Below are positions 4,783 through 32,000 of a stretch of DNA of 32,000 nucleotides, in pieces; the stretch's first letter is position 1; every line of letters begins with the position of its first letter. The notes beneath the pieces are model-generated. The model had not been told where the DNA came from. It ran no database searches and saw only the letters and a program-made list of their open reading frames with translations. Position numbers and translations under genes: made by a program. Origin of the DNA: Caldimicrobium thiodismutans (lineage in GTDB: Bacteria > Desulfobacterota > Thermodesulfobacteria > Thermodesulfobacteriales > Thermodesulfobacteriaceae); contig NZ_AP014945.1 of NCBI RefSeq assembly GCF_001548275.1, positions 1,290,001 to 1,322,000 on the forward strand, in the 5' to 3' direction.

Positions 4783-4785
4783 GAT

Positions 4786-5645: not shown

Positions 5646-5648
5646 ACT

Positions 5649-7393: not shown

Positions 7394-7432
7394 CTTTTTA
7401 AGTTTTTTTGGTTTTGAGAGGGGAGGGGGAGA

Positions 7433-8416: not shown

Positions 8417-8428
8417 GAGGTTTAAGGC

Positions 8429-8971: not shown

Positions 8972-8975
8972 GCTT

Positions 8976-9500: not shown

Positions 9501-9501
9501 G

Positions 9502-9804
9502 GTGGTTCCCTTTAATTATTATGTGATTTTGAGTCTTTTGCTCTTTCTGATAGGGCTCCTTGGAGTCCTTTTTAGGCGAAATCTCATTATATTACTTGTC
9601 TCTTTAGAAATCATGATGAATGCCTTGATTATCCTTTTTGCAGGTATTTCTCATTATACCAAAGATGTTACAGGTTATTTAATTGTTTTTTTTCTAATAG
9701 GTATGGCGGCAGCAGAGGCTGGAGTTGGGCTCTCTTTAGTGGTTCTTCTTTACAAGAAATTAAAAAAGGTATATGCAGACGAAATAAATTACTTCAGAGG
9801 TTAG
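9502..9804 (+). CDS. nuoK: complex I subunit K
   Basis: About 100 aa, 3 TM, with the LEIMMNA and AAAEAGVGL motifs. GTG at 9502 is 9 nt after AAAGGAGG. The track's TTG at 9493 abuts the SD. Confidence 0.9.
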   Translation: MVPFNYYVILSLLLFLIGLLGVLFRRNLIILLVSLEIMMNALIILFAGISHYTKDVTGYLIVFFLIGMAAAEAGVGLSLVVLLYKKLKKVYADEINYFRG

Positions 9805-9808
9805 AGGT

Positions 9809-11782
9809 ATGCATGAGGTTTCCTTTCAAGTAGTGAGAACCTTTGATATAATAGTTTTTTTAGTGCCTTTTTTACCCTTTTTGGCAAGTATTATTACCCT
9901 CCTCTTTGGCAAGAGATATTTCCGAGATAAGGCGCATTATTTACCGGTATCTGCTTTATTTGTAAGTTTTTTATTAAGTTTAAAACTTTTGATTGATGTT
10001 ATTTCTGGGAAGACCTATAATTTTGACATCTATTCCTGGATTGTAGCTGGTTCCCTTAAGGTTGGGCTTGGATTTCTTGTAGATCCCTTATCAGTAATGA
10101 TGCTGTGTATGGTTACTTCTCTTGCCTTTTTGATTCATGTTTATTCAATTGGATATATGGGTGGAGATCCTGGATATTACAGATTTTTTTCCTATATATC
10201 TCTTTTTACCTTTAGCATGCTTATGCTTGTTCTTTCAAATAATCTTGTCCAGCTTTATTTAGGTTGGGAGGCAGTTGGACTTTGTTCCTATTTTCTGATT
10301 GGTTTTTGGTATGAAAAAAAGAGTGCCAGTGATGCAGCTAAAAAGGCCTTTATTGTTAACCGTGTGGGTGATTTTGGGTTTGCCCTTGGTATTTTTGCTA
10401 TGTTTTATTATCTGGGGACCCTTTATTATACGGAAATCTTTGAAAAACTACCCCTTCTTGCCAATCTCTATGTTGAAATAGGGGGCTATGAGATCCATGT
10501 TCCCTTTTTAATTGCCTTTCTGCTCTTTTGCGGAGCTATGGGGAAGAGTGCTCAGGTTCCACTACATGTCTGGCTTCCGGATGCCATGGAGGGTCCAACT
10601 CCAGTTTCAGCCCTCATTCATGCTGCAACCATGGTTACAGCTGGAGTCTTTATGGTATCCCGGCTCCATGCCCTCTTTGAGATGAGTGATTATGCTATGG
10701 CTATGGTTGCCTTTGTTGGAGCTATTACCTGTTTTATGGCTGCAACTATTGCTCCTACTCAGTTTGATATAAAAAGGGTAGTTGCTTATTCCACTCTTTC
10801 TCAGTTAGGATACATGTTTATGGCCTGTGGAGTGGGTGCTTTTGCAGCGGGAATGTTTCACCTCTTTACCCATGCCTATTTTAAGGCCTTGCTCTTTCTC
10901 GGAGCGGGAAGTGTTATCCATGCCCTTCATCACGCCCCGGATCCAAATGATATAAGGATTATGGGAGGCTTAAAAAAGTATATGCCTATTACCTTTTGGA
11001 CCTTTCTCATTGCCAGTTTGTCTATCTCTGGAATTCCGGGCTTAGCTGGTTTTTTCAGCAAAGATGAGATTCTTGCCATGGCTTATTTTTCTAAATACCC
11101 CTGGGGTAAAGTTATCTGGTTGATTGGTTTGATAGTGGCTTCTATGACAGCCTTTTATACCTTTAGGATCTTTTTTAAGGCCTTTTTAGGTGAGTTTAGG
11201 GGCAAGGAGGCTCTTCACGGGCATCTACCCCATGAGTCCCCTAAGGTGATGACCTTTCCTCTTATAATAATTGCTGTAGGAGCTATTTTTGCTGGCTGGT
11301 TGGGAATACCTGAATCCTTAGGAGGAGGAGCAAACTTTCAGAGATTTCTTGAGCCTGTGCTCGGGCACCCCGAGCTTCCCCATATAGATCATACTCTTGA
11401 GTATTTACTTATGGGTCTTGGAGTTCTTGCTGGAATCTTGGGTATAAGCCTATCCTATTTAGTCTATGTCAAGAGTCCCTCCTTAGAAACTCTCTTTTCC
11501 TCAAGATTTAAGAGGCTTTATACTTTCCTTTATAGGAAGTGGCTTTTTGATGAGTTATATCATCGTATATTTGTTATGCCAACTTTATTTTTATCAAGAA
11601 CGGTTGTTAATCTTATTCTGGATACCTTTATTATTGATCAAACTGTCAATGGATCAGCAAGGACAGCTGAATCTTTTGCTGGAATTTTCAGACGGTTTCA
11701 TACCGGAGTTGTTAATCATTATAACTGGTTTATTTTACTTGGGTTAATTATTTATATGCTTGTTGTGATGTACTTAAAGTAA
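9809..11782 (+). CDS. nuoL: complex I subunit L (antiporter-like)
   Basis: 657 aa polytopic. Contains GWE.VGLCSY.LIGFW, GKSAQ.PLHVWLPDAMEGPTPVSALIHAATMV.AG and the long C-terminal lateral-helix region. Confidence 0.95.
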   Translation: MHEVSFQVVRTFDIIVFLVPFLPFLASIITLLFGKRYFRDKAHYLPVSALFVSFLLSLKLLIDVISGKTYNFDIYSWIVAGSLKVGLGFLVDPLSVMMLCMVTSLAFLIHVYSIGYMGGDPGYYRFFSYISLFTFSMLMLVLSNNLVQLYLGWEAVGLCSYFLIGFWYEKKSASDAAKKAFIVNRVGDFGFALGIFAMFYYLGTLYYTEIFEKLPLLANLYVEIGGYEIHVPFLIAFLLFCGAMGKSAQVPLHVWLPDAMEGPTPVSALIHAATMVTAGVFMVSRLHALFEMSDYAMAMVAFVGAITCFMAATIAPTQFDIKRVVAYSTLSQLGYMFMACGVGAFAAGMFHLFTHAYFKALLFLGAGSVIHALHHAPDPNDIRIMGGLKKYMPITFWTFLIASLSISGIPGLAGFFSKDEILAMAYFSKYPWGKVIWLIGLIVASMTAFYTFRIFFKAFLGEFRGKEALHGHLPHESPKVMTFPLIIIAVGAIFAGWLGIPESLGGGANFQRFLEPVLGHPELPHIDHTLEYLLMGLGVLAGILGISLSYLVYVKSPSLETLFSSRFKRLYTFLYRKWLFDELYHRIFVMPTLFLSRTVVNLILDTFIIDQTVNGSARTAESFAGIFRRFHTGVVNHYNWFILLGLIIYMLVVMYLK

Positions 11783-11794
11783 GGAGGTTTGAAG

Positions 11795-13255
11795 GTGGGT
11801 ATTCCCAACTTGTTATCTACAATACTCTGGTTACCTTTGATTGGGATAATTCTTATCTTTTTAATGTCCCGTGAAAGTGAAAGGGCTATTAAGGTTGTTG
11901 CTCTGGTTACAGCTCTTCTTGACTTTGTCCTTTCCCTTTTTCTTCTTCTCAGTTTTGATTTTACAAATCCGGGCTTTCAATTCGTTGAAAAATCTATCTG
12001 GATAGATTTTTTAAATACTTTTTATTTTCTGGGAGTTGATGGTGTAAGTATTCTCTTTGTGCCTCTGTCTACTCTGGTTACCCTCCTTTGTATTCTTATT
12101 TCCTGGGATTCTATTAAAGAAAAGGTCAAGGAGTTTTATCTTGCCCTCCTCTTTACAAATATTGCCATGGTAGGGGTTTTTCTTTCCTTGGATCTTTTAC
12201 TGTTTTACCTTTTCTGGGAGGCCTTACTCATTCCAATGTATCTTATCATTGGAGTCTGGGGAGGCCCAAGGAGAATCTATTCAACCCTTAAATTCTTCCT
12301 TTATACCTTTTTTGGTTCAGTTTTTATGCTTATTGCAATTATTTATATCTTTCTGCAGTATGGCACCTTTGATTATACTGCCCTTCTTGGAAAGACCTTT
12401 GCTCCTCATGTTGAAAAATTACTCTTTCTTGGATTTCTGATTGCCTTTGCCATTAAGGTTCCCATGTGGCCTGTGCATACCTGGCTTCCAGATGCCCATA
12501 CGGAGGCCCCAACTGCTGGATCGGTTATTCTTGCAGGAATACTTATTAAACTTGGCGGATACGGAATGGTAAGGTTTCTTCTCCCCTTATTTCCTCAGGC
12601 AACCCTTTATTTTGCCAAGTTAATTCTGGTTCTTTCAGTTATTGCCATTATTTATGCAGGACTTGCCTGTTTGTGGCAGAGTGATTTAAAAAGGCTTATT
12701 GCCTATTCTTCAGTAAGTCATATGGGATTTGTAACCCTGGGAATTTTTTCTTTAAATCCAATTGGAGTAAAAGGAGCTATTCTTCAGATGATTAATCATG
12801 GAATAGTTACTGGTGCCCTCTTTATGTGTGTTGGTGTCATATATGATAGAACCCACTCCCGTGCTATTTCCTATTATGGTGGGCTTGCAACGACTTTTCC
12901 CCTTTATGCAGCCTTTTTTATGGTCTTTACTTTGGCAAGTATTGGACTTCCGGGAACTAATGGATTCATAGGAGAATTTATGATCCTTCTTGGAACTTTC
13001 CTTAGGGATAAACTTATGGTTGTGCTTGCCTCAACCGGTGTCATCATCGGTGCTGCTTATATGCTTTGGCTTTATCAGAGGGTCTTTTTCCAAAAACCAA
13101 GCCCCAATGTATTTAATCTAACTCCTATGAAATGGAATGAACTTACTGCCATTATTCCCATGCTTGCCTTAGTTTTTTTAATTGGTTTTTATCCCAATCC
13201 TTTTTTAGATTTTATGCGGGCAACTGTTTCGCAGATTTTACTTAATTTCCGGTAA
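11795..13255 (+). CDS. nuoM: complex I subunit M (antiporter-like)
   Basis: Contains FWEALLIPMYLIIG.WGG, K.PMWP.HTWLPDAH.EAPTAGSV.LAG and AYSSVSHMGF. GTG at 11795 is 7 nt after AGGAGG; the track's TTG at 11789 is too close to it. Confidence 0.92.
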   Translation: MGIPNLLSTILWLPLIGIILIFLMSRESERAIKVVALVTALLDFVLSLFLLLSFDFTNPGFQFVEKSIWIDFLNTFYFLGVDGVSILFVPLSTLVTLLCILISWDSIKEKVKEFYLALLFTNIAMVGVFLSLDLLLFYLFWEALLIPMYLIIGVWGGPRRIYSTLKFFLYTFFGSVFMLIAIIYIFLQYGTFDYTALLGKTFAPHVEKLLFLGFLIAFAIKVPMWPVHTWLPDAHTEAPTAGSVILAGILIKLGGYGMVRFLLPLFPQATLYFAKLILVLSVIAIIYAGLACLWQSDLKRLIAYSSVSHMGFVTLGIFSLNPIGVKGAILQMINHGIVTGALFMCVGVIYDRTHSRAISYYGGLATTFPLYAAFFMVFTLASIGLPGTNGFIGEFMILLGTFLRDKLMVVLASTGVIIGAAYMLWLYQRVFFQKPSPNVFNLTPMKWNELTAIIPMLALVFLIGFYPNPFLDFMRATVSQILLNFR

Positions 13256-13267
13256 GGAGGAAACAAA

Positions 13268-14722
13268 GTGGTGACACTCAGTCTCAATTTTGGAGTCCTA
13301 GCCGTAGAATTAGTTTTTCTTTTTATGGGCCTTTTTATTTTTCTTATAGATAAATTTATTAATAATAAGAATTATGCCTTTTATTTAGCCTTTATAGCTT
13401 TAGTGGTAGGGCTTGGTTTTCTTCTTTTTACACCTTTTGGGGAGTTTGCCCAGGCCTTCAAAACAGATTTTTATGCCACCACCATTAAGCTTTTTTTTCT
13501 TATAGGTTTTCTTCTCGTTCTTTTTATTTCCTATTTTTATTTGCAGACCTTTAAAGCACTGAATGTTGGTGAGTATTATGGACTTTTGCTATTTTCCGGG
13601 ATGGGTGCTTTTGTTATGCTTTCCAGCCAGGATTTCCTTACTCTTTACTTAGGGATGGAATTAATGAGTATCCCTGTGTATTTTTTAATAGCCTCTTCTT
13701 TTGTTTACAGAAGGGCTTCTGTTGAAGGAGCTTTGAAATATTTTATAGCAGGTTCTCTTGCTTCTCTTTTCTATCTCCTTAGTCTTGGCATAATTTATTA
13801 TTTTATAGGTGCTATTTCTTTTAAGGAAGTCTTTATCAAGCTTGCTCAAGGCCTTTATAAAAAGGAGATGATCCTCGCCTTGCTTTTGATTTTATCTGCC
13901 TTTTCTGTCAAATTGTCCCTTGTTCCCTTTCACATGTGGGCCCCTGATGCCTATGAAGCCTCTCCCCTTCCTGTTACTTCCTTCTTGGCAAGTCTTATTA
14001 AGTTTGCTCTTATGGCAGCTTTTATAAAAATTTTAATTGTCGCCTTTGCTCCTTTGAAAATTAGTTTAGGAGAATTACTTATACCAATTACACTTCTTAC
14101 CTTATTAGTTGGTGCGCTTCTTGCCATCAAACAGGACAATATTATAAGGATGCTTGCATACTCCTCTATTACCCATGCTGGGTATGCCTCCTTAGGACTT
14201 CTTTCGGGTGATTTTCTGGGATACGGCTTCACTATTTTTTACATGTTTGTTTATCTCTTTATGACTGTAGGAACCTTTGGGCTTTTAATTTATCTTGCCA
14301 AATTGAAGAGGGAATTTCTTGAAATTCCTGCTCTTTCAGGATTGAGCAAGGATTTACCTCTTATTAGTTTTTTTGTATTGGTTTTTTTCTTTTCCTTAGC
14401 GGGTATCCCTCCCACAGCCGGTTTCATGGCAAAATTTTATCTCTTTGTGATGCTTATTAAATCAAATCTTTTGTGGGTGGCTTTACTTGCCCTTCTATTT
14501 TCCATTATAGGTGCCTATCCTTATTTAAGGGTAATTAAGGTTATCTATATGGACAAACCCCTTCATGTCGTTGAAAAAGAAAGGTATGGTTTTTCTATGT
14601 TATTTCCTGTATTAATCTCCCTTTTAGTTGTAATCCTTCTTGGTATTTACCCAAAGCCTGTGATTGATTTTATTCAGAGGACCCTTTATTTATACCTTAG
14701 CCTTCTTTATTTCCATTTTTAA
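13268..14722 (+). CDS. nuoN: complex I subunit N (antiporter-like)
   Basis: 484 aa polytopic. Contains LGMELMSIP.YFL, K....PFHMW.PD.YE..P and AYSSI.HAGY. GTG is 7 nt after TAAGGAGG. Confidence 0.9.
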   Translation: MVTLSLNFGVLAVELVFLFMGLFIFLIDKFINNKNYAFYLAFIALVVGLGFLLFTPFGEFAQAFKTDFYATTIKLFFLIGFLLVLFISYFYLQTFKALNVGEYYGLLLFSGMGAFVMLSSQDFLTLYLGMELMSIPVYFLIASSFVYRRASVEGALKYFIAGSLASLFYLLSLGIIYYFIGAISFKEVFIKLAQGLYKKEMILALLLILSAFSVKLSLVPFHMWAPDAYEASPLPVTSFLASLIKFALMAAFIKILIVAFAPLKISLGELLIPITLLTLLVGALLAIKQDNIIRMLAYSSITHAGYASLGLLSGDFLGYGFTIFYMFVYLFMTVGTFGLLIYLAKLKREFLEIPALSGLSKDLPLISFFVLVFFFSLAGIPPTAGFMAKFYLFVMLIKSNLLWVALLALLFSIIGAYPYLRVIKVIYMDKPLHVVEKERYGFSMLFPVLISLLVVILLGIYPKPVIDFIQRTLYLYLSLLYFHF

Positions 14723-16304: not shown

Positions 16305-16664
16305 ATGGAATATATACTTGAGGTTTTTCTTGATGACTACAGATTGGGAAAAATTAAGGGATCACCTGTAGAATCTAATATAGAGACAGTTTTTGGTGGT
16401 GAGCTTAAGGTTTTAAAAGTAAAGGTTGGAGAAGAGACAAAAAATGATGTTCTTAAGGCCTTTGAGACTGCTCGTATTGATTCCCGTGCCTGTATCACAG
16501 ATACTCCTGTTGCCTTTAAGAGAGCCCTTTTTGAAGAGATAGCGAAGCAGAAGAGTCTTGGAGAGGAAGTGGTTAAGGCTGTTCTTGGAAGGATTAATGA
16601 AATAAAGGAATTAGCAGCTAAGGAATCAGATTTTTTACCAGCCCCTGAGATAGAAACAGATTAG
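16305..16664 (+). CDS. hypothetical acidic 119-aa protein embedded between sat and aprB
   Basis: Strong SD (GAGGAGGTGA) 5 nt before the ATG. No overlap with the neighbours. No TM segment, signal peptide or cofactor motif. One Cys. I recognise no family. Confidence 0.75.
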   Translation: MEYILEVFLDDYRLGKIKGSPVESNIETVFGGELKVLKVKVGEETKNDVLKAFETARIDSRACITDTPVAFKRALFEEIAKQKSLGEEVVKAVLGRINEIKELAAKESDFLPAPEIETD

Positions 16665-22797: not shown

Positions 22798-23997
22798 ATG
22801 AGTAATGCTATTTTAAAAGTTGATGCGGATTTGTCCGCAGTTAAAGAAATTCAAGGTATAGGTGGAGATACGGTAAAGAGATGCTATCAGTGTGCAACCT
22901 GTTCAAGTGTATGCCCTCTGGCACCCGATGAGGCACCTTTTCCAAGAAAACAAATGATACTTGCCCAGTGGGGTTTTAGAGAAAAGCTTCTTTCTGATCC
23001 AAATGTATGGCTTTGCCATCAGTGTGGTGATTGCACCAAGTATTGTCCCAGAAATGCTCGGCCTGGTGATGTGCTTGCCTCTTTAAGGCTTCTTGTGACA
23101 AAGGAGCTTGTGCCTTTTAAGTTTATGAACACCTTTTATAGTAATCTTTGGGGGTTGCCTATTTTAATCTTAATTGCCCTGGCCTTTATTTTGCCAGTGC
23201 TCTTTCTTACTTTTGGAGGTGTTCCTGATTTTTCTGATCCCGTATCCTTTCCATATAATCCTGAGCTCCACTATAAAATAGGATTTATAGATTTACCAGC
23301 GAGAGTTTTGATGATTGATTTAATCTTTCTTCCATTAGCAACTTTTGTCGTAGTTCTTATGGCTAATGCGGTAAATAAGATGTGGAATACCTATCTTGAA
23401 TATTACAAGATTCCTCAGGCTTATCGACTTGGTGCCGTTACTATAATTAAAACTTATCTTGGCCCAGCTTTGAAGGAGATCCTTGCCCATAGCAGATTTG
23501 AAAAGTGTGATGCTAATTCCTGGAGAGCCAATCCTCATAAAATGCTCTTTTATGCCTTTATTATCCTTTTCATTACTACAGGCACCGTATTTATCTTGGC
23601 GGATATCCTTGGGATGCATACTCCCTGGAATCCCTTTACCCATCCTGTTAAATGGCTTGGTAATATTGGTGGTATATTGCTTCTTTACGGAGTTATTTCT
23701 CTTATATCAGGGAGAAATAGAGCAGTGCTTGAGAATTCACTCAAGACGGCTTATCCAGATGCCTTTCTATTATGGCTCATTTTGTTTGTGGGTATTACTG
23801 GATTCGGAATTGAAGTTGTCAGAATGGTTCCAGTCTTTTATAACTTTTCAGCCTTTGTTTATTTGGCTCATCTTGTTTGTGTCTTCTTGCTCTTTTTAGC
23901 TATTCCATATGGAAAATTTTCTCATCTTGTTTTTAGAACAACAGCAGTTGTTTTTGATCTGTATTACAAAGATACATTGAAAAAACAATCTTCATAA
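22798..23997 (+). CDS. qmoC: Qmo subunit C (HdrC-like FeS domain fused to HdrE/NarI-like heme-b membrane domain)
   Basis: N-terminal CYQCATCSSVCP and CHQCGDCTKYCP, followed by about 6 TM helices with conserved His residues. Confidence 0.9.
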   Translation: MSNAILKVDADLSAVKEIQGIGGDTVKRCYQCATCSSVCPLAPDEAPFPRKQMILAQWGFREKLLSDPNVWLCHQCGDCTKYCPRNARPGDVLASLRLLVTKELVPFKFMNTFYSNLWGLPILILIALAFILPVLFLTFGGVPDFSDPVSFPYNPELHYKIGFIDLPARVLMIDLIFLPLATFVVVLMANAVNKMWNTYLEYYKIPQAYRLGAVTIIKTYLGPALKEILAHSRFEKCDANSWRANPHKMLFYAFIILFITTGTVFILADILGMHTPWNPFTHPVKWLGNIGGILLLYGVISLISGRNRAVLENSLKTAYPDAFLLWLILFVGITGFGIEVVRMVPVFYNFSAFVYLAHLVCVFLLFLAIPYGKFSHLVFRTTAVVFDLYYKDTLKKQSS

Positions 23998-24010
23998 GAA
24001 GAGTTTCCTT

Positions 24011-24044
24011 AGGGCCCCTTATAAGGAGGGGCCTTTATTTATTT
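24011..24044 (+). terminator. Rho-independent terminator after qmoC
   Basis: Stem 24012-24019 (GGGCCCCT) pairs with 24027-24034 (AGGGGCCT): 7 Watson-Crick pairs plus a terminal G-U. Loop TATAAGG, followed by the T-rich TTTATTTATTT. Confidence 0.6.
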
Positions 24045-24068
24045 CAATTTTGGTCTATAATTTAAAAA

Positions 24069-26423
24069 ATGCGTCTTAATGTGCTTTTTTTTATTATTTT
24101 TTTCTTTGTATTTTCTTTTTTTATAACCATTAATCTTTTTTTTGAGAGGTCCTTTCAAAAGGAGTCTTTAGACCTAAGTCATAAAGAATTAGGCCTATTA
24201 ACTCAAAATCTAGCAGAAAAACTTTCATTTATTCTTAATATTGTGCCTCAAAAATATAGTTCAATTTCAAATTATTTAAGAAGTCAAGGGAATGTTTTAA
24301 AAATTGATAAAGAATTTATTTCCTCTTTTTTTGTAAAAGATTTAGAGAATTTATCCGGACTTAAAGTAGAATTTGTGTATAATTATGAAAAGATCAAAGA
24401 TAAGGAAAGTTTTAATGTTGAAACGGATTTTTCTGAAAGAAAGATACTTTATCTTCTTCCTTTTGAATCTAACGGACAGGCAATCTTGGCACAAATTTCC
24501 ATTAGTTTAGATGAAATATTTCAAAAAAACCTAAAACCCATTAAACTTACCCCCAAGGGACATGCCTGGTTAATATCTAAAGAGGGAACCCTGATTTATC
24601 ATCCTACTCAACCCGGTATGATTGGGAATAATATTTATTCAAATAATCCAATCTGTTTTAAATGTCATAAGAGCTTTGAAGCAGAAAAGATGATTCTTAA
24701 AGAGTCTATTAAAAGTGGATACCACTATTATTATTCCCCTGAAAAATTAGACAAAGTAATTTATTATGCAAAGGTCCCTGTTTTTGATCAGGAATGGATC
24801 CTTTGCGTTAGTATCCCTTATGATGAATTACAGTCAGCTATAAATAAAAGTATGAAGCTACATTCTTTAATAGTTATATCTATTTTTTTATCTATGATAA
24901 TTCTGGGAACCCTCTTTTATTATATTAATACAAAGCGTATTGCAGCTGAGGAGAAATTGAAATTTTATGCATTATTAGAGGGTATTATTGAGAGTACTCA
25001 ATCCAAAATTGTAGTTATGGATAAGACTTATAAAATAGTTTTAGCTAATACTCCTTATGCTAATTTATTGAAAAGACCTAAAGAGGAGATTTTAGGAATA
25101 AACTTTTTTGAAATATGTCCTCAACAAATAGAGATGTATAGAGTAACATTAAAAGAATTAATTAATAGATCTTTTAATGGTGAATATAGTGAATTAATGG
25201 GATATCCTTTAAAGGAAAATGGAGAAATTAAGTATTATCACATAACAGTAAATCCTCTTAAAGAGGGGACTGAGATTACGGGAGCAGTGCTTACCTGTGA
25301 TGATATAACTGAGGAGGTAGCTTTACGGGAACAAATTAAAGAATATGCTAATCAACTTGAAAAATTAGTAGCTAAAAGGACAGAGGAATTACAAGCAGAA
25401 AAGGAAAAACTTTCTATTATTATGGAAACAGTTAATTCAGGTATTTGTTTAATTGACGAAGAGGGAACAATTACATGGATGAATTCAAAAATGGAGGACA
25501 TTCTTGAATTATATAAATATAAACAATTTTCAGACAAAATTAATATTTGTGAATTATTTAGTAAGATTGGAGATTGTTTAAATGCCCTTGCCTCTACCCA
25601 ATTTGTTCAGGAGATTTTAGTTCAAGGACAACGAAAGATTTTTCAGGTTCAGATAACCCCTGTTAGAACAGCAGAGGACAAAACAAATTATATTTGTCTG
25701 ATTCAGGATATAACTGACCTTAAATTAATGGAAGAGCGAATCATGCAATCGGAAAAACTTCAGGCCTTGGCAAGAATTTCGGCTGGCTTAGCTCATGAGA
25801 TAGGCAATCCTCTTACTTCTATTTCTTCTTATGTTCAAGTTCTTAAAGAGATGGATTTAGGAGATTTTGCCAATCAAGCCTTAGAAATTATCTCCAAGCA
25901 TATTTTGAGGATTTCTGAAATAATAAGAAATATTTCAAGTTTTGCTAAACCCTCTAAAGGAGAGGTATTTCCTGTTAAGATTAACGAAGTGCTCGAGGGA
26001 AGTCTTGCTCTTGTAAGATTTGATAAAAGAATGAAGGATATTAAGGTAAACTTGAACCTAAAGGAGGTTTCTGAGGTTTTGGTGGATCCAAATCAGCTTT
26101 CTCAAGTTTTTATTAATATCATTTTAAATGCAGCCGATGCCATGCCTGAGGGCGGAGACCTGACTATTGAGACTAAAGAAGAAGATGGTTATGTATTAGT
26201 TAGTTTTACTGATACTGGAATTGGCATTTCACCAGAAAATCTTCCTCATATATTTGATCCTTTTTTTACCACTAAGGAAAAGGGGACAGGGTTTGGTTTG
26301 TCTGTTTCTTATAGCATTGTCAAAAATTTTGGAGGAGACATTTTGGTTAAAAGCCAGATAGGTCAGGGCTCTACTTTTACAGTAAAACTACCTGTATATT
26401 CTTCACAAGGGGTGAGTGCTTGA
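24069..26423 (+). CDS. membrane sensor histidine kinase: TM, periplasmic Cache-like domain with CXXCH, TM, PAS, coiled coil, PAS, HisKA, HATPase
   Basis: N-terminal TM (LFFIIFFFVFSFFITINLFF) and a second TM (LIVISIFLSMIILGTLFYYI). Periplasmic GHAWLISKEGTLIYHP is Cache-like. CFKCH at 24654-24668. H-box LAHEIGNPL. N/G boxes NIILNAADAM, DTGIGI and GTGFGLS. Confidence 0.9.
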   Translation: MRLNVLFFIIFFFVFSFFITINLFFERSFQKESLDLSHKELGLLTQNLAEKLSFILNIVPQKYSSISNYLRSQGNVLKIDKEFISSFFVKDLENLSGLKVEFVYNYEKIKDKESFNVETDFSERKILYLLPFESNGQAILAQISISLDEIFQKNLKPIKLTPKGHAWLISKEGTLIYHPTQPGMIGNNIYSNNPICFKCHKSFEAEKMILKESIKSGYHYYYSPEKLDKVIYYAKVPVFDQEWILCVSIPYDELQSAINKSMKLHSLIVISIFLSMIILGTLFYYINTKRIAAEEKLKFYALLEGIIESTQSKIVVMDKTYKIVLANTPYANLLKRPKEEILGINFFEICPQQIEMYRVTLKELINRSFNGEYSELMGYPLKENGEIKYYHITVNPLKEGTEITGAVLTCDDITEEVALREQIKEYANQLEKLVAKRTEELQAEKEKLSIIMETVNSGICLIDEEGTITWMNSKMEDILELYKYKQFSDKINICELFSKIGDCLNALASTQFVQEILVQGQRKIFQVQITPVRTAEDKTNYICLIQDITDLKLMEERIMQSEKLQALARISAGLAHEIGNPLTSISSYVQVLKEMDLGDFANQALEIISKHILRISEIIRNISSFAKPSKGEVFPVKINEVLEGSLALVRFDKRMKDIKVNLNLKEVSEVLVDPNQLSQVFINIILNAADAMPEGGDLTIETKEEDGYVLVSFTDTGIGISPENLPHIFDPFFTTKEKGTGFGLSVSYSIVKNFGGDILVKSQIGQGSTFTVKLPVYSSQGVSA

Positions 26424-27778
26424 TGGAAAAACCGAGTATACTACTTGTGGATGATGAAGAAGACATCTTAAGTGTTCTTAAGTTTGTTCTTGAAAAAGAG
26501 GGATATCAAGTGGCAACAGCCCCGAGTGGTGAGGAGGCCCTTAAACTTATGGATAAAAATTATTTTGATATTGTGCTTTCTGATTTGAGGATGCCTGGTA
26601 TAGATGGAATTCAGCTTCTTGAAAGGGTAAAAGAGTTAAGCCCATCAACTGATGTTGTGATCATGACTGCTTATGCAAGTATTGATTCAGCTGTAACAGC
26701 TATAAAGAAGGGGGCATCAGATTATATTGTTAAGCCCTTTATTAATGAAGATGTTAAAATGCGCTTGAAAAGAATCCTTGAACACAAGAGTCTTCAAAAA
26801 GAGGTTGAGGCCTTAAGGTATCAGTTGAGTCAGAGGTTAAAAGGAGATATCTTTTGGGGAACCTCTCCCCAGATGCAGGAAATAATGAGACTATTAGAAC
26901 GAGTAATTCCCACTAAAAGCACAATCCTCATTTTAGGGGAATCTGGGACAGGAAAAGGAGTTTTAGCTGAATTTATTCATAATAACAGTCCTCGCCAAGA
27001 TAAACCCTTTATTAGTATTAATTGTTCCGCCATACCAGAGAATCTTCTTGAATCTGAACTATTTGGATACAAAAAAGGAGCCTTCACAGGAGCTATAACT
27101 GATAAAAAGGGACTTATTGAACTTGCTAATGGGGGAACGCTTTTCCTTGATGAAATAGGAGATATGCCATTAAATCTGCAGGCCAAGATACTTAAATTTT
27201 TAGAAACTGGTGAATTTATTCCTCTTGGAGACACCACTAAAAAACAGGTTGATGTAAGAATTCTTGCTGCAACCAATAAAAACCTTGAAGAGCTGATTAA
27301 AGAAGGAAAATTTAGAGAAGATTTGTATTTCCGTTTGAATGTAATAGAAATAAAGATTCCCCCTCTTAGGGAACGGCGGGAAGATATTCCTGCTTTGGTT
27401 TACTTTTTTATTGATAAGTTAACTAAGGAACATAATAAAAAAGTTAAGGGAATAACTAATGAAGCCCTTTCTTTTTTAATTAATTATGACTGGCCCGGCA
27501 ATGTTAGGGAGCTAAAAAATGTTATCGAACGGGCTGTTATTTTAGCAACTGGCGAGTTTATAACTGCTAATGAGCTTCCAGAAAGAATTAAGGGAAATAG
27601 AGGGTTAGAATTTCCAGCCAAAACCCTGAAAGAATCTTTGGAGGAATTCGAAAAAAATATAATTCTCAATACCCTTAAACAGGTAAATTACAATAAAGAA
27701 CAGACAGCTAAGATTTTGGGAATTGATTTAGCAACTCTTTACAGAAAACTAAAAAAGTATCAGATTGAAGAAATCTAA
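26423..27778 (+). CDS. sigma-54-dependent response regulator (NtrC family: REC, AAA+, Fis-type HTH)
   Basis: REC domain (LLVDDEE, SDLRMPG.DG, K at ..VKPF). Walker A GESGTGKG. GAFTGA loop at 27077-27094. Also contains DEIGDM, REDLY.RLN, WPGNVREL and a C-terminal HTH (QTAKILGIDLATLYRKLKKY). The ATG overlaps the kinase TGA by 1 nt. Confidence 0.93.
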   Translation: MEKPSILLVDDEEDILSVLKFVLEKEGYQVATAPSGEEALKLMDKNYFDIVLSDLRMPGIDGIQLLERVKELSPSTDVVIMTAYASIDSAVTAIKKGASDYIVKPFINEDVKMRLKRILEHKSLQKEVEALRYQLSQRLKGDIFWGTSPQMQEIMRLLERVIPTKSTILILGESGTGKGVLAEFIHNNSPRQDKPFISINCSAIPENLLESELFGYKKGAFTGAITDKKGLIELANGGTLFLDEIGDMPLNLQAKILKFLETGEFIPLGDTTKKQVDVRILAATNKNLEELIKEGKFREDLYFRLNVIEIKIPPLRERREDIPALVYFFIDKLTKEHNKKVKGITNEALSFLINYDWPGNVRELKNVIERAVILATGEFITANELPERIKGNRGLEFPAKTLKESLEEFEKNIILNTLKQVNYNKEQTAKILGIDLATLYRKLKKYQIEEI

Positions 27779-27780
27779 AA

Positions 27781-28062
27781 GTGTCTAAACCCTTTAAATT
27801 AGGATTTATAATTGGTTTTATATTAGGCATAGCTGTGGCTTTTATGCTTGATTTTGCCTTCAGAGATACCCTTGGAGGAACTTGGTTTGATGCGGTTTCT
27901 CAGGATCTCTCAAGAATTATGAAAAAAGAAATTTCCAAGGACTCCCCTCTTGTTTTCATTGGTGTTACTTCTGTGATTATGTTTATTGGTCTGATAGGAG
28001 GTATTTTAGGAGGCATAGCAGCAAAGATCGTTTTTGAATTTCTCAATTCTCTTGACTCCTAA
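27781..28062 (+). CDS. small two-TM membrane protein (93 aa), coupled to the response-regulator gene
   Basis: GTG lies 2 nt after the regulator's TAA. TM1 LGFIIGFILGIAVAFML. TM2 LVFIGVTSVIMFIGLIGGILGGIAA is Gly-zipper-like. No obvious SD, which is consistent with translational coupling. Confidence 0.6.
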   Translation: MSKPFKLGFIIGFILGIAVAFMLDFAFRDTLGGTWFDAVSQDLSRIMKKEISKDSPLVFIGVTSVIMFIGLIGGILGGIAAKIVFEFLNSLDS

Positions 28063-28123
28063 TTTTTTGCAATTCTGCCAAAAAAGAAAATATTTTTTAG
28101 TCATTTTTTTGCACATTTGCAAA
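28063..28123 (+). promoter_or_regulatory. candidate enhancer (UAS) elements: repeated TTTTTTGCA / TTTGCA motifs
   Basis: TTTTTTGCA at 28063-28071 and 28105-28113, 42 bp apart (about 4 helical turns). A third TTTGCA is at 28116-28121. TTTGCACATTTGCAAA (28108-28123) is a 14/16 palindrome. Confidence 0.3.
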
Positions 28124-28164
28124 GGACTTCCTTGTTAAATTAAGAAAGATCTTTCTTTTCTCTC

Positions 28165-28180
28165 TGGCATATTTTTTGAT
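28165..28180 (+). promoter_or_regulatory. candidate sigma-54 (-24/-12) promoter
   Basis: TGGCAT-ATTTT-TTGAT compared with the consensus TGGCAC-N5-TTGCW. The GG and the TTG are correctly spaced, but the -12 C is replaced by A. It is 38 nt upstream of the ATG at 28218 and directly downstream of a sigma-54 activator gene. Confidence 0.4.
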
Positions 28181-28217
28181 AATAAATTTATATAAGAAAA
28201 AATAAGAGGTGAGAAAA

Positions 28218-28448
28218 ATGAGAGGGATAACAGGAATAAAGACAGAACCGAAGGGAAAAGGCACAGAGGTAGCTTTTTTAGTAATAACACTTTTTCTTCT
28301 TCAAATGCTTTTATATCTTTTAGGAGGTTTCACTAAAAGTGAAGTTATAAAAAGGGTTTTATTAAGCATTTCGGCTGTTGGCTTAATGGTTAGTTTAATC
28401 TTTCCTCTTTCTTATGTGATTTTGAGAAATAAGAAAAATAAAAAATAA
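28218..28448 (+). CDS. small two-TM membrane protein (76 aa)
   Basis: ATG at 28218 is 8 nt after AAGAGGTGA; the track's GTG at 28209 overlaps the SD. TM1 VAFLVITLFLLQMLLYLLGGF. TM2 LLSISAVGLMVSLIFPLSYVIL. Basic tail NKKNKK. Confidence 0.55.
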   Translation: MRGITGIKTEPKGKGTEVAFLVITLFLLQMLLYLLGGFTKSEVIKRVLLSISAVGLMVSLIFPLSYVILRNKKNKK

Positions 28449-28462
28449 AAGGAGGTGGGATT

Positions 28463-28759
28463 ATGTTAGCAAAACTTGATTCCAGGAAAGGGATTTACAT
28501 CGGGACCGGTGCCGGGTTGATTCTCTTTGTGCTTCTTGGGTTCTTTCCCAGTGCTATGATGGGAGGATATGTTGGTTTGAAACTGGCTGAACTCATCATG
28601 GGTCCCGGGAGTATGGGAGTTGTGGCAAGGTTATTTACTGCTCTTAGCATGATAGGAGCTGTTCTTGTTACAGCAGTTGTCTTTGTGCTTGGAGGAGCTA
28701 TAGCTGGTTATATTTTATCTGGAAAATTGAGAGCTAAGGAGGCTGGAAGCAAAGCTTAG
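28463..28759 (+). CDS. small membrane protein, paralog 1 (98 aa)
   Basis: SD AAGGAGGTG. Shares the motif GLILFV..GF.PSA..GG..GLKL.EL..G ... FV.G.AI.G.IL with the 28854 gene. Confidence 0.72.
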   Translation: MLAKLDSRKGIYIGTGAGLILFVLLGFFPSAMMGGYVGLKLAELIMGPGSMGVVARLFTALSMIGAVLVTAVVFVLGGAIAGYILSGKLRAKEAGSKA

Positions 28760-28771
28760 GAAAGTTAAGCA

Positions 28772-28830
28772 GGGGTTAGCCTCCCTTCATCCATTCCCCA
28801 TAAGCCCCCAAAGGAAGGGAAGCTAACCCC
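28772..28830 (+). repeat. 17-bp inverted repeat (long stem-loop) between the two paralog genes
   Basis: GGGGTTAGCCTCCCTTC (28772-28788) against GAAGGGAAGCTAACCCC (28814-28830): 16/17 complementary, with one C/A mismatch. The loop is 25 nt and C-rich. Followed by CCCCCC-TTTAAAA-GGGGG (28827-28844). Confidence 0.7.
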
Positions 28831-28853
28831 CCTTTAAAAGGGGGTGATCAATT

Positions 28854-29156
28854 ATGAAGACAAGACTTAAAAAAAGTGTTTTAGCAGGGGCCTTTGTGGG
28901 GTTAATTTTATTTGTTATTGCTGGATTTTTACCCAGCGCCTATACAGGAGGGCTCTTCGGATTAAAGCTTTCTGAACTTCTTTTCGGTACTCCTATTGAA
29001 CCCTCCACAGGACCAAGGATTCTTGTTGCCTTTTGGATGGTGCTGAGTGTGATCATTTCTGGTGCCATTTTTGTGGTGGGATGTGCAATTATTGGTTGGA
29101 TTTTGGGTTTTCTTTTAGAAAAGAAAAAGATTAAAGAAAAAAATCTACTTAGCTAA
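28854..29156 (+). CDS. small membrane protein, paralog 2 (100 aa)
   Basis: SD AAGGGGGTGA 9 nt upstream. Aligns with the 28463 product (AGAFVGLILFVIAGFLPSAYTGGLFGLKLSELLFG against GTGAGLILFVLLGFFPSAMMGGYVGLKLAELIMG). Lys-rich tail. Confidence 0.72.
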   Translation: MKTRLKKSVLAGAFVGLILFVIAGFLPSAYTGGLFGLKLSELLFGTPIEPSTGPRILVAFWMVLSVIISGAIFVVGCAIIGWILGFLLEKKKIKEKNLLS

Positions 29157-29180
29157 AAAATTGTTGATAGGGAGGGGTAT

Positions 29181-29531
29181 ATGAAATTTATTGTTAGCAG
29201 AACAAGGGTGCCCTTGTGGAGTAAAGAAAAACCTTGTGATGAGGCTGTAGAGGAGGAACTCACTCCTCTTGATTACAGGATGGTTTCAAGCCTTGAGGAA
29301 GCCAAAAAAAAGATCTGGTTCAAGGACTGGTGGGAAGGGGGAGTAAATCACCGGGAGGAAAATGGAATGATAGTTTGTGAAAAAAAACAAAAGGAAAAAA
29401 ACTGGGTAATTGAAATTAAGAGTCTTGAGGATTTGCTTAAATTTCAAGAAAAATATGGTGAGATCATGCTTCTTGATTCTCCACCTTATAAGGAAGTCAA
29501 AAAGGAAATTCGTATTTTAAGAGCAAAGTAA
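29181..29531 (+). CDS. hypothetical soluble 116-aa protein (charged, Trp-rich)
   Basis: SD GGGAGGGG 5 nt upstream. No TM segment or signal peptide. Contains KKKIWFKDWWEGGVNHREENG. Two Cys, no cofactor motif. I recognise no family. Confidence 0.65.
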   Translation: MKFIVSRTRVPLWSKEKPCDEAVEEELTPLDYRMVSSLEEAKKKIWFKDWWEGGVNHREENGMIVCEKKQKEKNWVIEIKSLEDLLKFQEKYGEIMLLDSPPYKEVKKEIRILRAK

Positions 29532-29544
29532 AGGAGGGGGAAGG

Positions 29545-30768
29545 ATGAGTGCGAAAAAGAATCCTATGATTGTTGAAGGAGAAGTTGCCTTTTCACAAAC
29601 TTGGATGTCAAGTTTATTTGAGTTTTTGTCAGGAACTAAAGCTTTTTACTACATTGTGGGTTTAAGTGCTTTGATTTTGATGATTGCTGCAATGTTTGGC
29701 GTAAATGCTATGTATACAGGATATAGACATGTTTATGGAGTAACAAGAGAAATTCCTTGGGGCATACTGATCTCTGGGTATGTATTTTTCGTGGTTACCT
29801 CAACAGGTTTATGTATTGTCTCCTCAATCGGCCATGTCTTTGGGGTAAAATCTTTTATGCCTATCGCTAAACGGTCTGTATTTCTATCTGTAGTTACTAT
29901 TTTGGCTGGGTTTATGGTAATCTTTTTTGATGTTGAAAACCCCTTCAGAATGGCTATTTGGAATGTTTTTTCTCCTAATCCCACCTCAAATATATGGTGG
30001 ATGGGAACCTTGTATGGAGCTTATTTGGTTTTTATGACTATAGAATTTATATTGCTTCTTCTCGAGCAACATAGATATGCTATGTTAGCAGGACTCCTTG
30101 GATTGATCTCAGGAATAGCAGCTCATAGTAATCTTGGAGCAGTTTTTGGTATGCTCCATGGAAGAGAATTTTGGTATGGTCCTTATATGCCTATTTATTT
30201 TATCGCCTCTGCTGCAGCTTCTGGGTGCACAGCCATAATTTTCTTTACCTATCTTGGTTATAAAATTACCGCTGAAAGAATGGACAGAGCTATGGAACTT
30301 TCTTTACAGGCTGTAGGTAAGATTTGGGCCCTTTTTCTGGCAGTGCTGATGTTTTTTACAACCTGGAAGATTATAACTGGTCTTGCGGCAGGAGAGGGAA
30401 AGGTTTTAGCTATCAAGGAGCTTACTACCGGTAAATATGCTCTTAATTTTTGGTTCTTTGAGGTGCTTCTCGGAATGGTTGGCCCATTCTTGTTACTTCT
30501 GATTTCAGGTTTTAGAAATATCAATCAGATGTTTGTAGCCTCTGTGCTTGCTTTTATCGGGATCTTTTTCATGCGGGTGGATCTCGTTGTTATTGGCCAG
30601 ATTGTTTCACACTATTTTGAATTTAATATAACCGATTTTCCGGTAATTTTGTCTTATAAACCCAGTATATATGAGATTATGGTTATTGTTGGAGCTATTG
30701 CCTTTGCAATTATGGCCTTTCTGGTTGGGGAAAAGGTCTTTAAAGGGCATAAAACAGAAATTCATTAA
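29545..30768 (+). CDS. NrfD/PsrC/DsrP-family polytopic membrane (quinone-interacting) subunit
   Basis: 407 aa, about 10 TM. Contains EIPWGILISGYVFFVVTSTG (the NrfD-family W(G)..I..Y.F..G motif) and PNPTSNIWWMG. SD AAAGGAGGGGG. Confidence 0.88.
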   Translation: MSAKKNPMIVEGEVAFSQTWMSSLFEFLSGTKAFYYIVGLSALILMIAAMFGVNAMYTGYRHVYGVTREIPWGILISGYVFFVVTSTGLCIVSSIGHVFGVKSFMPIAKRSVFLSVVTILAGFMVIFFDVENPFRMAIWNVFSPNPTSNIWWMGTLYGAYLVFMTIEFILLLLEQHRYAMLAGLLGLISGIAAHSNLGAVFGMLHGREFWYGPYMPIYFIASAAASGCTAIIFFTYLGYKITAERMDRAMELSLQAVGKIWALFLAVLMFFTTWKIITGLAAGEGKVLAIKELTTGKYALNFWFFEVLLGMVGPFLLLLISGFRNINQMFVASVLAFIGIFFMRVDLVVIGQIVSHYFEFNITDFPVILSYKPSIYEIMVIVGAIAFAIMAFLVGEKVFKGHKTEIH

Positions 30769-30782
30769 AGGAGGGGGAAATT

Positions 30783-31541
30783 ATGTTCAAAAACTTTAAA
30801 GATTGGTTGCTGGGATTAAAGAATGAAGGAACAGAAAATATTCCTGATGAGACCAGAAGGGATTTTTTAAAGATAGGTTTAATTATAACCGGAGTTTTTG
30901 CAGGAGGGAGCCTTTTTTCTGTAGTTTCAAGAGTAGCAGAGGGATTGGCAAGTCCTGAAGAATTGCATAAGAAGTATCCTTATAAACCTCACTATACTAT
31001 GGTTTTCAAGATGGATAGATGTATTGACTGTGAGCTATGTATGGAGGCCTGTGTGAAAACCAATCATGTTCCTGATTATGGTTGGAGAACTATGATCTTA
31101 AGAAGACATGATGAAACTGCAGTGGATCAAAAAACACTTTTTATGCCCATTCTTTGCAATCATTGTAATAATCCGCCTTGTGTAAGGGCATGTCCAACCA
31201 AAGCAACCATTAAGGATAAACAGACGGGAATTGTTAAGATGATCTCCTATAAGTGTATTGGATGTAAAACCTGTATGGTGGCCTGTCCTTATAATGCAAG
31301 GTATTTTAATGAGGAAAAACATGCAGTGGATAAATGTGATTTTTGCTGGGAATCCAGGCTTTCTAAAGGCGAAAAATTAACCGCCTGTGCAGCTGCCTGT
31401 CCAGCCGGGGTTAGAAACTTTGGTGATCTATCCGATCCGGGAAGTGAGGTTTATCAACTTGTGCATCAGTTAGCCAAACCTGTTTGGGTTTTAAAGCCTG
31501 AGACAGGGGCTAAGCCTAATGTCTTTTATACCATTAGCTAA
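30783..31541 (+). CDS. Tat-exported 4x[4Fe-4S] protein (NrfC/PsrB/DsrO/HybA family)
   Basis: Twin-arginine motif TRRDFLKIG followed by a hydrophobic region. Cys groups CIDCELCMEAC, CNHCNNPPCVRACP, CIGCKTCMVACP and CDFCWESRLSKGEKLTACAAACP. SD AAAGGAGGGGG. Confidence 0.92.
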   Translation: MFKNFKDWLLGLKNEGTENIPDETRRDFLKIGLIITGVFAGGSLFSVVSRVAEGLASPEELHKKYPYKPHYTMVFKMDRCIDCELCMEACVKTNHVPDYGWRTMILRRHDETAVDQKTLFMPILCNHCNNPPCVRACPTKATIKDKQTGIVKMISYKCIGCKTCMVACPYNARYFNEEKHAVDKCDFCWESRLSKGEKLTACAAACPAGVRNFGDLSDPGSEVYQLVHQLAKPVWVLKPETGAKPNVFYTIS

Positions 31542-31553
31542 GGGAGGGAGAAA

Positions 31554-32000
31554 ATGCGCAAAGTGAAAATATTCGTAGGAACACTCACACTTCTTTTAGG
31601 TGTGGTTAGTCTTGCCTATGTTTCGGAAAAAAAGGAAAATCCTTCAAAGGAGGCAGAACTCCTTAATCAGGGTGTAGTTTATATGGAAAGTGAAGAGGCA
31701 GGGGGTCCTGAAATAGTTTATGCCAAGCCTGTAAGGGGAGTCCTTTTCAGCCATAAATACCATGCAAAGGAACTGGGACTTTCCTGTGAGTCTTGCCATT
31801 CCGGTATCTTTGAAATGCAGGCCTTAAAATCTCAAGAAAATCCTGACTTTAATATGGAGGCTCTTTATAAAGGAAAATATTGTGGAGCCTGCCATAATGG
31901 TCAGTCTGCTTTTGCTTCAAATACCAAGTGTGCAAACTGTCATATCGGGGTAAAGGGAATGAAAGAATATATCAAAAAGCTTGCGGTGAGTGAAAAGAAA
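31554..32000 (+). CDS. periplasmic triheme c-type cytochrome (c7/c3-like), 3' end outside window
   Basis: My own translation (not in the ORF track because no stop is reached): MRKVKIFVGTLTLLLGVVSLAYV signal, then CESCH (31785-31799), CGACH (31881-31895) and CANCH (31929-31943). FSHK.H...C..CH...GK.CG.CHNG..AF is the pattern of triheme c7-type domains. SD GGGAGGGAG. Confidence 0.85.
   Translation, partial: MRKVKIFVGTLTLLLGVVSLAYVSEKKENPSKEAELLNQGVVYMESEEAGGPEIVYAKPVRGVLFSHKYHAKELGLSCESCHSGIFEMQALKSQENPDFNMEALYKGKYCGACHNGQSAFASNTKCANCHIGVKGMKEYIKKLAVSEKK

Follow-up and report, generated by a model that had tools for sequence, protein, structure and literature searches.

A candidate sigma-54-controlled NrfD/FeS/cytochrome c7 module beside qmoABC in Caldimicrobium thiodismutans, with co-conserved regulators and small membrane proteins

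How do sulfur disproportionators and non-deltaproteobacterial sulfate and sulfite reducers join their periplasmic electron carriers to the menaquinone pool? This question is raised by a locus of Caldimicrobium thiodismutans that occupies the last 8 kb (positions 24069-32000) of the 32,000-nt stretch analysed here (contig NZ_AP014945.1, positions 1,290,001 to 1,322,000; hereafter, the window) and lies behind qmoABC. A sequence-only reading, made by a model without database searches, had described these 8 kb as one regulatory and respiratory unit and as a candidate undescribed system. All the features that it listed were found where it had placed them, so that its observation is confirmed, and its interpretation was partly supported. 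With moderate confidence, we read the 8 kb as a self-contained, sigma-54-controlled module for a cytochrome c:menaquinone oxidoreductase, regulated and reversible, of the same kind as Qrc, Cbc4 and the alternative complex III (ACIII) core. In sulfur-cycling bacteria, the complex would probably carry electrons between menaquinone and the cytochromes of the periplasm.

The operon is predicted to code for a three-subunit, periplasm-facing complex without a catalytic subunit, in which NrfD would provide the quinone site, joined by an iron-sulfur (FeS) protein and a c7 cytochrome:

29545..30768, plus strand: NrfD-family integral membrane subunit of the 10-helix type, 407 aa (PF03916, 1.2e-25)
30783..31541, plus strand: Tat-exported (RRDFLK) FeS subunit with four [4Fe-4S] motifs, 252 aa (Fer4_11, 83.7 bits)
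31554..32000, plus strand: triheme c7-type cytochrome with an N-terminal signal or anchor, last codon and stop beyond the window edge

The NrfD protein matched PF03916 with 91.2 bits against a cut-off of 25.8 and thus belongs to this family. Its AF2 model (pLDDT 79) was closest to ActC of ACIII, with TM-scores of 0.72-0.76 over about 410-445 columns at a sequence identity of only about 15%, and the eight-helix PsrC was not among the structure matches at E<0.001. Since the model is ActC-like, the protein is placed in the 10-helix branch (ActC/QrcD/DsrP/HmcC) rather than with the eight-helix PsrC type. Its sequence profile gave no match to solved structures. The FeS gene starts 14 nt after nrfD, making an NrfCD-type pair. 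The best solved relative of the FeS subunit was PsrB/NrfC (2vpw_B, 4e-35), and its scores stayed under the NCBIfam cut-offs for NrfC, DsrO, TtrB, QrcC and HmcB.

The genome loci compared in this work are labelled by L-numbers (L001, L010 and so on), L001 being the window contig with a further 10 kb downstream. There, the full-length cytochrome has 150 aa; it resembles the c7 domains of GSU1996 (3ov0, 1.4e-38) and, weakly, QrcA and ActA. The operon ends after this gene. The next one is convergent and codes for a 321-aa, eight-haem protein with a single transmembrane (TM) helix, whose N-terminal part is of the NapC/NirT kind and whose C-terminal part is a c7 domain. The 10 kb downstream showed neither a molybdopterin subunit nor genes for NrfA, DsrMK or an HdrD-like protein, and the earlier statement that no catalytic subunit is visible thus also holds for the extended contig. 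The cytochrome after the FeS gene varies by lineage, with 3, 6, 9 or 12 CXXCH motifs, that is, one to four c7 domains (L006, 10962-11888; L007, 11062-11688; L017, 12022-13101; L021; L022; compare the Geobacter 'nanowire' cytochrome GSU1996).

A genome scan recovered the NrfD/FeS/c7 core in at least 578 genome stretches of Thermodesulfobacteria, Nitrospirota and Desulfobulbales, and the 75 loci retained from them were searched by tblastn and with hidden Markov models. NrfD has thousands of relatives; the top 120, at 58% identity or more, came from Caldimicrobium, Thermodesulfobacteriaceae and Nitrospirota, and identities across the three lineages were 55-67%. In Thermodesulfobacteria and Nitrospirota, a kinase with a haem motif, a response regulator, a 93-aa protein, a pair of small TM proteins and a 116-aa protein were conserved together with the core, in rearranged order, a recurrence that bears out the earlier view of a single regulatory and respiratory unit. 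In Thermodesulfobacteria, qmoABC is followed by kinase, regulator and 93-aa gene and then by the pair of small TM genes, the gene for the 116-aa protein and the NrfD-FeS-c7 trio, which faces a convergent NapC-like gene. Nitrospirota loci often start with a ten-haem NapC-like cytochrome, after which come TM, 116-aa, TM, NrfD, FeS and a 6-, 9- or 12-haem cytochrome; on the opposite strand lie the 93-aa homologue, the regulator and the kinase. The link to qmo that had been proposed stood in five Thermodesulfobacteria loci, where the module follows qmoC. Two of these have no intervening regulator genes: small TM genes begin 40 nt after qmoC in L012, and NrfD-FeS-c7 comes immediately after it in L008.

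Desulfobulbales and their relatives carry the core and a sigma-54 activator, and the small proteins are absent. Up to three NrfD paralogues occur there, each extra one followed by a MerR/HspR-like gene. In Desulfosediminicola flagellatus (L051, 4073-11705), as in L055, L061, L073 and others, NrfD1-FeS-c7 is followed by a strict sigma-54 promoter (TGGCAY-N5-TTGCT). On its 3' side come a gene for a 73-84-aa one-TM protein with an EWFWF...LGPF(S/A)AP motif and then NrfD2 (35-39% identity), a MerR/HspR-like regulator, NrfD3 (56-57%) and a second MerR-like gene. The arrangement suggests NrfD subunits that can be exchanged for one another and are controlled separately. Eight-haem cytochromes of 454-538 aa are encoded on the minus strand about 3-4 kb 5' of NrfD in L049, L050, L056, L058, L062 and L063; those of L050 and L058 scored 289-301 bits against the octaheme tetrathionate reductase (OTR) family and missed its cut-off of 375. 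The octahaem cytochromes of Desulfobulbales could be periplasmic catalytic partners.

The regulatory genes of the unit precede the operon:

24069..26423, plus strand: sensor histidine kinase, 784 aa (TM1, periplasmic dCache, TM2, two PAS, HisKA, HATPase)
26420..27778, plus strand: sigma-54 enhancer-binding response regulator (REC, AAA+ with GAFTGA, AAA_lid, HTH_8)
27781..28062, plus strand: 93-aa two-TM protein, translationally coupled to the regulator, starting 3 nt past its stop

The TM helices of the kinase span aa 3-21 and 268-286, and the dCache match between them (aa 126-248) encloses CFKCH at aa 196-200, the periplasmic CXXCH of the sequence-only reading. The motif was kept at aa 194-222 in 14 of 14 linked kinases from two phyla and is a putative c-type haem-binding motif, periplasmic and conserved. 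Periplasmic c-haem sensor domains are those of the Geobacter GSU0582/GSU0935 type. In the kinase, as in these proteins, CXXCH is part of a PAS/Cache-like domain that is periplasmic and flanked by two TM helices; unlike in them, the domain is borne by a histidine kinase, partnered by a sigma-54 activator and tied to one operon.

The start of the regulator gene overlaps the kinase stop codon. Its product matched Sigma54_activat (241 bits, 5.7e-72), Response_reg (3.1e-32) and HTH_8 (2.5e-14) in Pfam, and the combination of REC, a GAFTGA-bearing AAA+ domain and a Fis-type helix-turn-helix assigns it to the NtrC class. The sigma-54 activator recognised earlier is therefore supported both by its domains and by the motif in the translation. 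Orthologues with 57-61% identity adjoin the module in Nitrospirota. The 93-aa TM protein was likewise coupled as described. Its family directly follows the regulator gene in 13 further genome loci, has G8, G12, G16, D24, G32, W35 and D42 as invariant residues, and is separate from the family of the 98- and 100-aa proteins (hhalign probability 9%).

Between the 93-aa open reading frame (ORF) and the first ORF of the operon, an intergenic region of 146 nt (28063-28208) holds the candidate control elements:

28068..28121, plus strand: putative activator-binding sites, degenerate TGCAATTCTGCC at 28068-28079 and palindromic TGCACATTTGCA at 28110-28121
28165..28180, plus strand: sigma-54 -24/-12-like element TGGCATATTTTTTGAT (TGGCAT-N5-TTGAT), a GG-N10-GA variant

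The TTTGCA repeats and the -24/-12-like element pointed out earlier are thus recovered as a palindrome with a degenerate copy and as a GG-N10-GA element, the latter being the sole TGGYAY-N5-TTGMW match in the 32-kb window. Both kinds of element precede the small-TM genes in related loci. In 14 of 25 loci, TGCA-N4-TGCA preceded the first small gene by 84-170 nt, and in L011 (the C. thiodismutans metagenome-assembled genome ZAV-15) by 349-391 nt, against a background of 0.06-0.5 per kb; it fits an activator-binding site. TGGCAY-N5-(T/C)TGC, close to the sigma-54 consensus, lay 38-83 nt 5' of the first small-TM gene in L007, L019, L027, L028, L030, L033 and L035, and L043 has a TGGTAT variant at the position equivalent to the promoters of seven other Nitrospirota-type loci. 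The GG-N10-GA (TTGA) variant recurs at the equivalent position in the close relatives L010 and L011 (Caldimicrobium group).

The small genes of the operon lie between this promoter-like element and nrfD:

28218..28448, plus strand: 76-aa two-TM ORF (79 aa if read from GTG 28209)
28463..28759, plus strand: 98-aa Gly-rich two-TM protein, 100% identical to THC_1320 of C. thiodismutans
28854..29156, plus strand: 100-aa membrane protein, by sequence comparison a paralogue of the 98-aa protein
29181..29531, plus strand: 116-aa soluble protein, without signal peptide or TM helix

Pfam and NCBIfam recognised the NrfD protein, a four-cluster FeS protein and a c7 triheme domain, and returned no match for any of the five small proteins (93, 76, 98, 100 and 116 aa), in agreement with the earlier statement that five proteins have no recognisable family. 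Among the three small TM proteins that had been counted together in the operon, the 98/100-aa pair is conserved, but the 76-aa ORF is restricted to one lineage and decays in a close relative. Across the loci compared, a homologue of this ORF was found in L010 only, and in L011 (8524-8855) the region is broken into short frames, with the promoter and the upstream sites retained. The ORF, whose likelier start is ATG 28218 behind the ribosome-binding site AAGAGGTGA (also the choice of the JGI gene caller), can be read as a lineage-specific filler and is probably dispensable.

The 98/100-aa family has G14, G18, F22, G26, P29, G34, G35, G38, G47, R56 and G82 as conserved residues. The TM pair, with two copies per locus, was present in 20 of the 23 Nitrospirota-type loci and 3 of the 4 Thermodesulfobacteria loci with enough upstream flank. 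The 116-aa protein, with invariant C19, H57, R58 and W75, was present in 14 of 23 Nitrospirota-type loci with enough flank. Its AF2 model reached a pLDDT of 90, and in a Foldseek search of the PDB no match to the model was better than E 0.9. Judged from their sequences, the two Gly-rich membrane proteins and the small, presumably cytoplasmic protein are co-conserved with the complex. A profile search placed the 116-aa protein in a superfamily of 1528 representative clusters without a Pfam entry. Distant relatives (42-47% identity) were located on phage-like contigs beside holin and RecT genes (L084, 6001-6351; L086, 3077-3418), and weak phage matches were obtained with phrog_11889 and with the BFVD entry A0A449C4B3, a phage structure prediction.

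The sequence-only reading had itself named two objections, that the small genes might be fillers without conserved linkage and that the locus might be a rearranged, already characterised complex such as dsrMKJOP. The first holds for the 76-aa ORF only, the other small genes being linked to the module; the second is contradicted by the contig extension and by the family cut-offs. Because neither a catalytic subunit nor dsrMK appeared on extension and the small genes are co-conserved, both objections fail.

The term undescribed system proved too strong for the core, since an NrfD/FeS/cytochrome module is of a well-known kind. A matching parts list, compared by composition only, is that of Cbc4 (CbcSTU, GSU0068-0070) of Geobacter sulfurreducens, made up of a membrane-anchored NapC/NirT multihaem cytochrome, a 4x[4Fe-4S] protein, a cofactor-less membrane subunit and a c7 partner, PpcA (bioRxiv 10.1101/2025.04.14.648717). 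Both are presumed quinone:cytochrome c oxidoreductases. Unlike in Cbc4, the gene for c7 is part of the operon and its product a subunit, the NapC-like protein, whose gene is convergent, is an octaheme fusion with a c7 domain, and the set is accompanied by small TM proteins, by the 116-aa protein and by a sensor pair of its own, the haem-Cache kinase and the sigma-54 regulator.

With QrcABCD, the module shares a periplasm-facing set of a c7-like multihaem cytochrome, an FeS protein and a 10-helix NrfD, and the proposed job of passing electrons from cytochrome c to menaquinone, feeding Qmo/Apr. It differs in lacking the molybdopterin-like QrcB and in having three haems in the cytochrome as against six in QrcA. 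QrcABCD itself was rejected, with all Qrc cut-offs widely missed (QrcC, 105 vs 400; QrcA, 26 vs 180; no QrcB-like gene in the window or 10 kb downstream). QrcCD reduces menaquinone electrogenically, and the partners of 10-helix NrfD proteins are non-molybdenum proteins (PMC6303296); Qrc has been described for Desulfobacterota sulfate reducers only (PMC13059093). The likeness to ACIII (ActABCDEF) lies in NrfD, whose model superposes best on ActC, in the cytochrome, with a c7-like domain as in ActA, and in the FeS protein, which matches the C-terminal part of ActB; the ActB1 domain, the second NrfD-like protein ActF, and ActD/ActE have no counterpart. A complete ACIII was rejected, the FeS protein having 252 aa without a molybdopterin-like part and NrfD being encoded by a single gene. 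HmcABCDEF was rejected as well (HmcC, 60 vs 550; HmcB, 79 vs 420; no HmcA, HmcE or HmcF).

The NrfD/FeS/cytochrome c core is already known, having been seen and mis-annotated before. Thermosulfurimonas has a cluster of the same order, NrfH-NrfD-NrfC-triheme cytochrome, likened here by gene order only and called 'Nrf without NrfA' (PMC4911364, PMC9676032). In Dissulfuribacter thermophilus, an NrfD with FeS, cytochrome and regulator neighbours, termed an unknown enzyme by the authors, was more abundant by log2 6.9 with H2 and sulfite than in thiosulfate disproportionation (PMC13490349). DsrO-like clades with NrfD neighbours have been reported as 'function not clear' (PMC10504309). The papers on Desulfurivibrio iron respiration and on Thermodesulfovibrio N1 do not mention the cluster. 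As far as the literature searched goes, no description was found of the conserved regulators, the operator, the small membrane proteins and the phage-derived small protein.

In the mechanism that we propose, the kinase would sense the periplasmic redox state or a small haem ligand, for example sulfite or sulfide, and would phosphorylate the regulator, which would then activate sigma-54 RNA polymerase at the operon. The complex would act as a reversible cytochrome c:menaquinone oxidoreductase comparable to Qrc, Cbc4 and the ActABC core. In the direction that we prefer, which is Qrc-like, periplasmic donors (H2, formate, reduced sulfur) would reduce c-type cytochromes, including the octaheme NapC-like neighbour, and electrons would then travel by way of c7 and the FeS chain to NrfD, where menaquinone is reduced. 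The reaction would consume cytoplasmic protons and feed the quinone pool used by QmoABC-AprBA and DsrMK. The small membrane proteins would most likely be accessory or stabilising subunits. This direction is preferred because of the induction by H2 and sulfite in Dissulfuribacter and because of the adjacency to qmo; the context counted for the reading comprises the position behind qmoC in the five Thermodesulfobacteria loci and the presence of nuo, sat and aprBA in the window.

Several points weigh against this reading. The proposed qmo link breaks down in Nitrospirota and Desulfobulbales, in whose loci qmo was not found within 10 kb of the module. A NapC/NirT-type quinol dehydrogenase beside an NrfCD-type module is odd for a simple quinone reductase. 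The Dissulfuribacter NrfD is likened to L039 by gene layout only and is thus a putative orthologue. The -12 part of the window promoter has A in place of the conserved C (consensus TGGCAC-N5-TTGCW, GG-N10-GC). The small TM proteins and the 116-aa protein are missing in L008, L017, L031 and all Desulfobulbales loci and are thus non-essential to the core, and a redox role of the 116-aa protein is spoken against by the phage association of its relatives.

The rival that survives best, a serious one though clearly less probable in our judgement, keeps the complex and turns the flow round: menaquinol generated by reverse Apr/Qmo during disproportionation would be oxidised at NrfD, possibly driven by the proton motive force, and electrons would leave by the FeS protein and c7 for periplasmic reductases whose genes lie elsewhere, with thiosulfate or polysulfide reductases or octaheme OTR-like enzymes as suggested acceptors. 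The host matches the sulfur disproportionator C. thiodismutans, whose species description reportedly gives no sulfate reduction, and the lineages that carry the module are rich in disproportionators. The OTR-family octaheme cytochromes 3-4 kb from NrfD in six Desulfobulbales loci would also suit this direction, in which Cbc4 and ACIII are thought to run, from quinol to cytochrome. However, the Dissulfuribacter NrfD was low in thiosulfate disproportionation and high with H2 and sulfite, and a periplasmic reductase is linked neither in the window nor in most loci.

A bolder form of the Qrc-like reading makes the Gly-rich pair and the 116-aa protein genuine new subunits, which would lend the complex a cytoplasmic face or an ion path, and the module a switched link to the quinone pool that replaces Qrc. 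We hold this to be doubtful. If it were true, Thermodesulfobacteria and Nitrospirota would run Apr/Qmo and Dsr through the module in disproportionation or in sulfite/H2 respiration, and the module would be a lineage-specific replacement of Qrc, sensed by a periplasmic haem-Cache kinase.

The reverse view, that the accessory genes (small TM, 116-aa, 93-aa) are unrelated passengers, draws on the filler nature of the 76-aa ORF, on the phage-associated superfamily of the 116-aa protein and on the absence of the accessory genes in Desulfobulbales and a few other loci. Yet the TM pair was retained in 23 of 27 loci with enough flank, in two phyla and always directly upstream of NrfD behind a sigma-54 promoter; the operon-borne clade of the 116-aa protein is tight, with 60-90% identity, and always lies inside the operon; and the 93-aa gene always follows the regulator gene. 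Passengers are unlikely on these grounds.

It is likewise quite unlikely that the genes supply NrfH, NrfC and NrfD as the membrane portion of a cytochrome c nitrite reductase with NrfA encoded elsewhere. NrfC is indeed the top NCBIfam match of the FeS subunit, and the same-order Thermosulfurimonas cluster has been annotated in this way, but the NrfC score was 170.8 bits against a cut-off of 377.6, and the NapC-like protein of L006 reached 40.5 against the NrfH model, whose cut-off is 134.2. No NrfA-like gene lies in the window or 10 kb downstream. A scan of 78 loci for ORFs that bear at least four CXXCH motifs and lie within 7 kb identified no NrfA, but is not exhaustive, the CXXCK site of NrfA being invisible to it; besides the c7 subunit of the module itself, those found were NapC-like, OTR-family and a few small unclassified proteins. 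Both source papers note that NrfA is missing (PMC4911364, PMC9676032), and the putative nrfCD genes of Desulfurivibrio, possible orthologues of those in the window, were not nitrate-induced (PMC5516251).

A spare or alternative DsrJOP module docking onto DsrMK is very unlikely: the triheme cytochrome, the Tat FeS protein and the 10-helix NrfD-family protein are identical in type to the three Dsr subunits, the hosts metabolise sulfur, DsrO is the second-best match of the FeS protein and DsrO-like clades with NrfD neighbours are on record (PMC10504309), but the cytochrome is of the c7 type and not DsrJ, both cut-offs were missed (DsrO, 166.9 bits vs 200; DsrP, 44.8 vs 350), dsrM and dsrK, absent from the window and the 10 kb downstream, were noted in none of the other loci examined, and T. 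dismutans carries a separate, complete dsrMKJOP; DsrMKJOP was accordingly rejected.

For the question of how these bacteria join periplasmic carriers to menaquinone, the module offers a concrete and widespread candidate, found in at least 578 genome stretches and beside qmoABC in Thermodesulfobacteria, with a testable sensor, promoter and operator of its own. It adds three conserved protein families without annotation. It would correct the recurrent mis-annotation as 'Nrf nitrite reductase lacking NrfA', and it may explain the strongly induced orphan NrfD of the Dissulfuribacter proteomics.

Two hairpins complete the description of the unit:

24011..24035, plus strand: terminator-like hairpin and T-run after qmoC, a 10-bp stem with 6 GC pairs followed by TATTTATTTC
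28772..28830, plus strand: intercistronic stem-loop, a 16-bp stem with a 25-nt loop containing CCCCAUAAGCCCC (17-nt inverted repeat, one mismatch)

The first separates qmoC from the unit and thus marks its upstream boundary. The second sits in the 94-nt spacer between the 98-aa and 100-aa genes, the single exception in an operon that was found as tightly packed as had been claimed, with gaps of 12-24 nt elsewhere. When the spacers were folded singly, equivalent long stems with different stem sequences were obtained in L010 (7842-7901) and L011 (9223-9289), and in L012 (9607-9660) a stem was present in the centroid structure only; a MAFFT alignment of the spacers did not bring the stems into register, and RNAalifold run on it was uninformative. 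The loop motif CCCCAUAAGCC(C/U)C is common to the window, L010 and L012. The folding energy of the window hairpin was unexceptional against shuffled sequences (z -0.6 to -1.3), and an Rfam scan of 23900-32000, stem-loop included, gave no credible match. The stem-loop may be an element of mRNA processing or stability.

On the 5' side of the unit, all on the plus strand, the window is annotated with a ferredoxin gene, a nuo operon, sat, a DUF6955 gene, aprBA and qmoABC. The ferredoxin gene and nuoABCDHIJKLMN (11 subunits, without nuoEFG) occupy 4369-14722, directly 5' of sat, and the DUF6955 gene lies at 16305-16664, between sat and aprB. Together, nuo, apr, qmo and the NrfD module form one block of quinone-linked complexes. 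A strongly negative AT skew over 9000-14000 corresponds to the nuo membrane subunits, and the G+C content drops to 0.29 in the kinase sensor region (24001-25000), compared with about 0.40 elsewhere. Past the NapC-like gene, at 12623-17668 of L001, the minus strand carries genes for an ArsP-type permease, a hybrid PAS kinase, a YgaP-like TM protein and a GGDEF protein.

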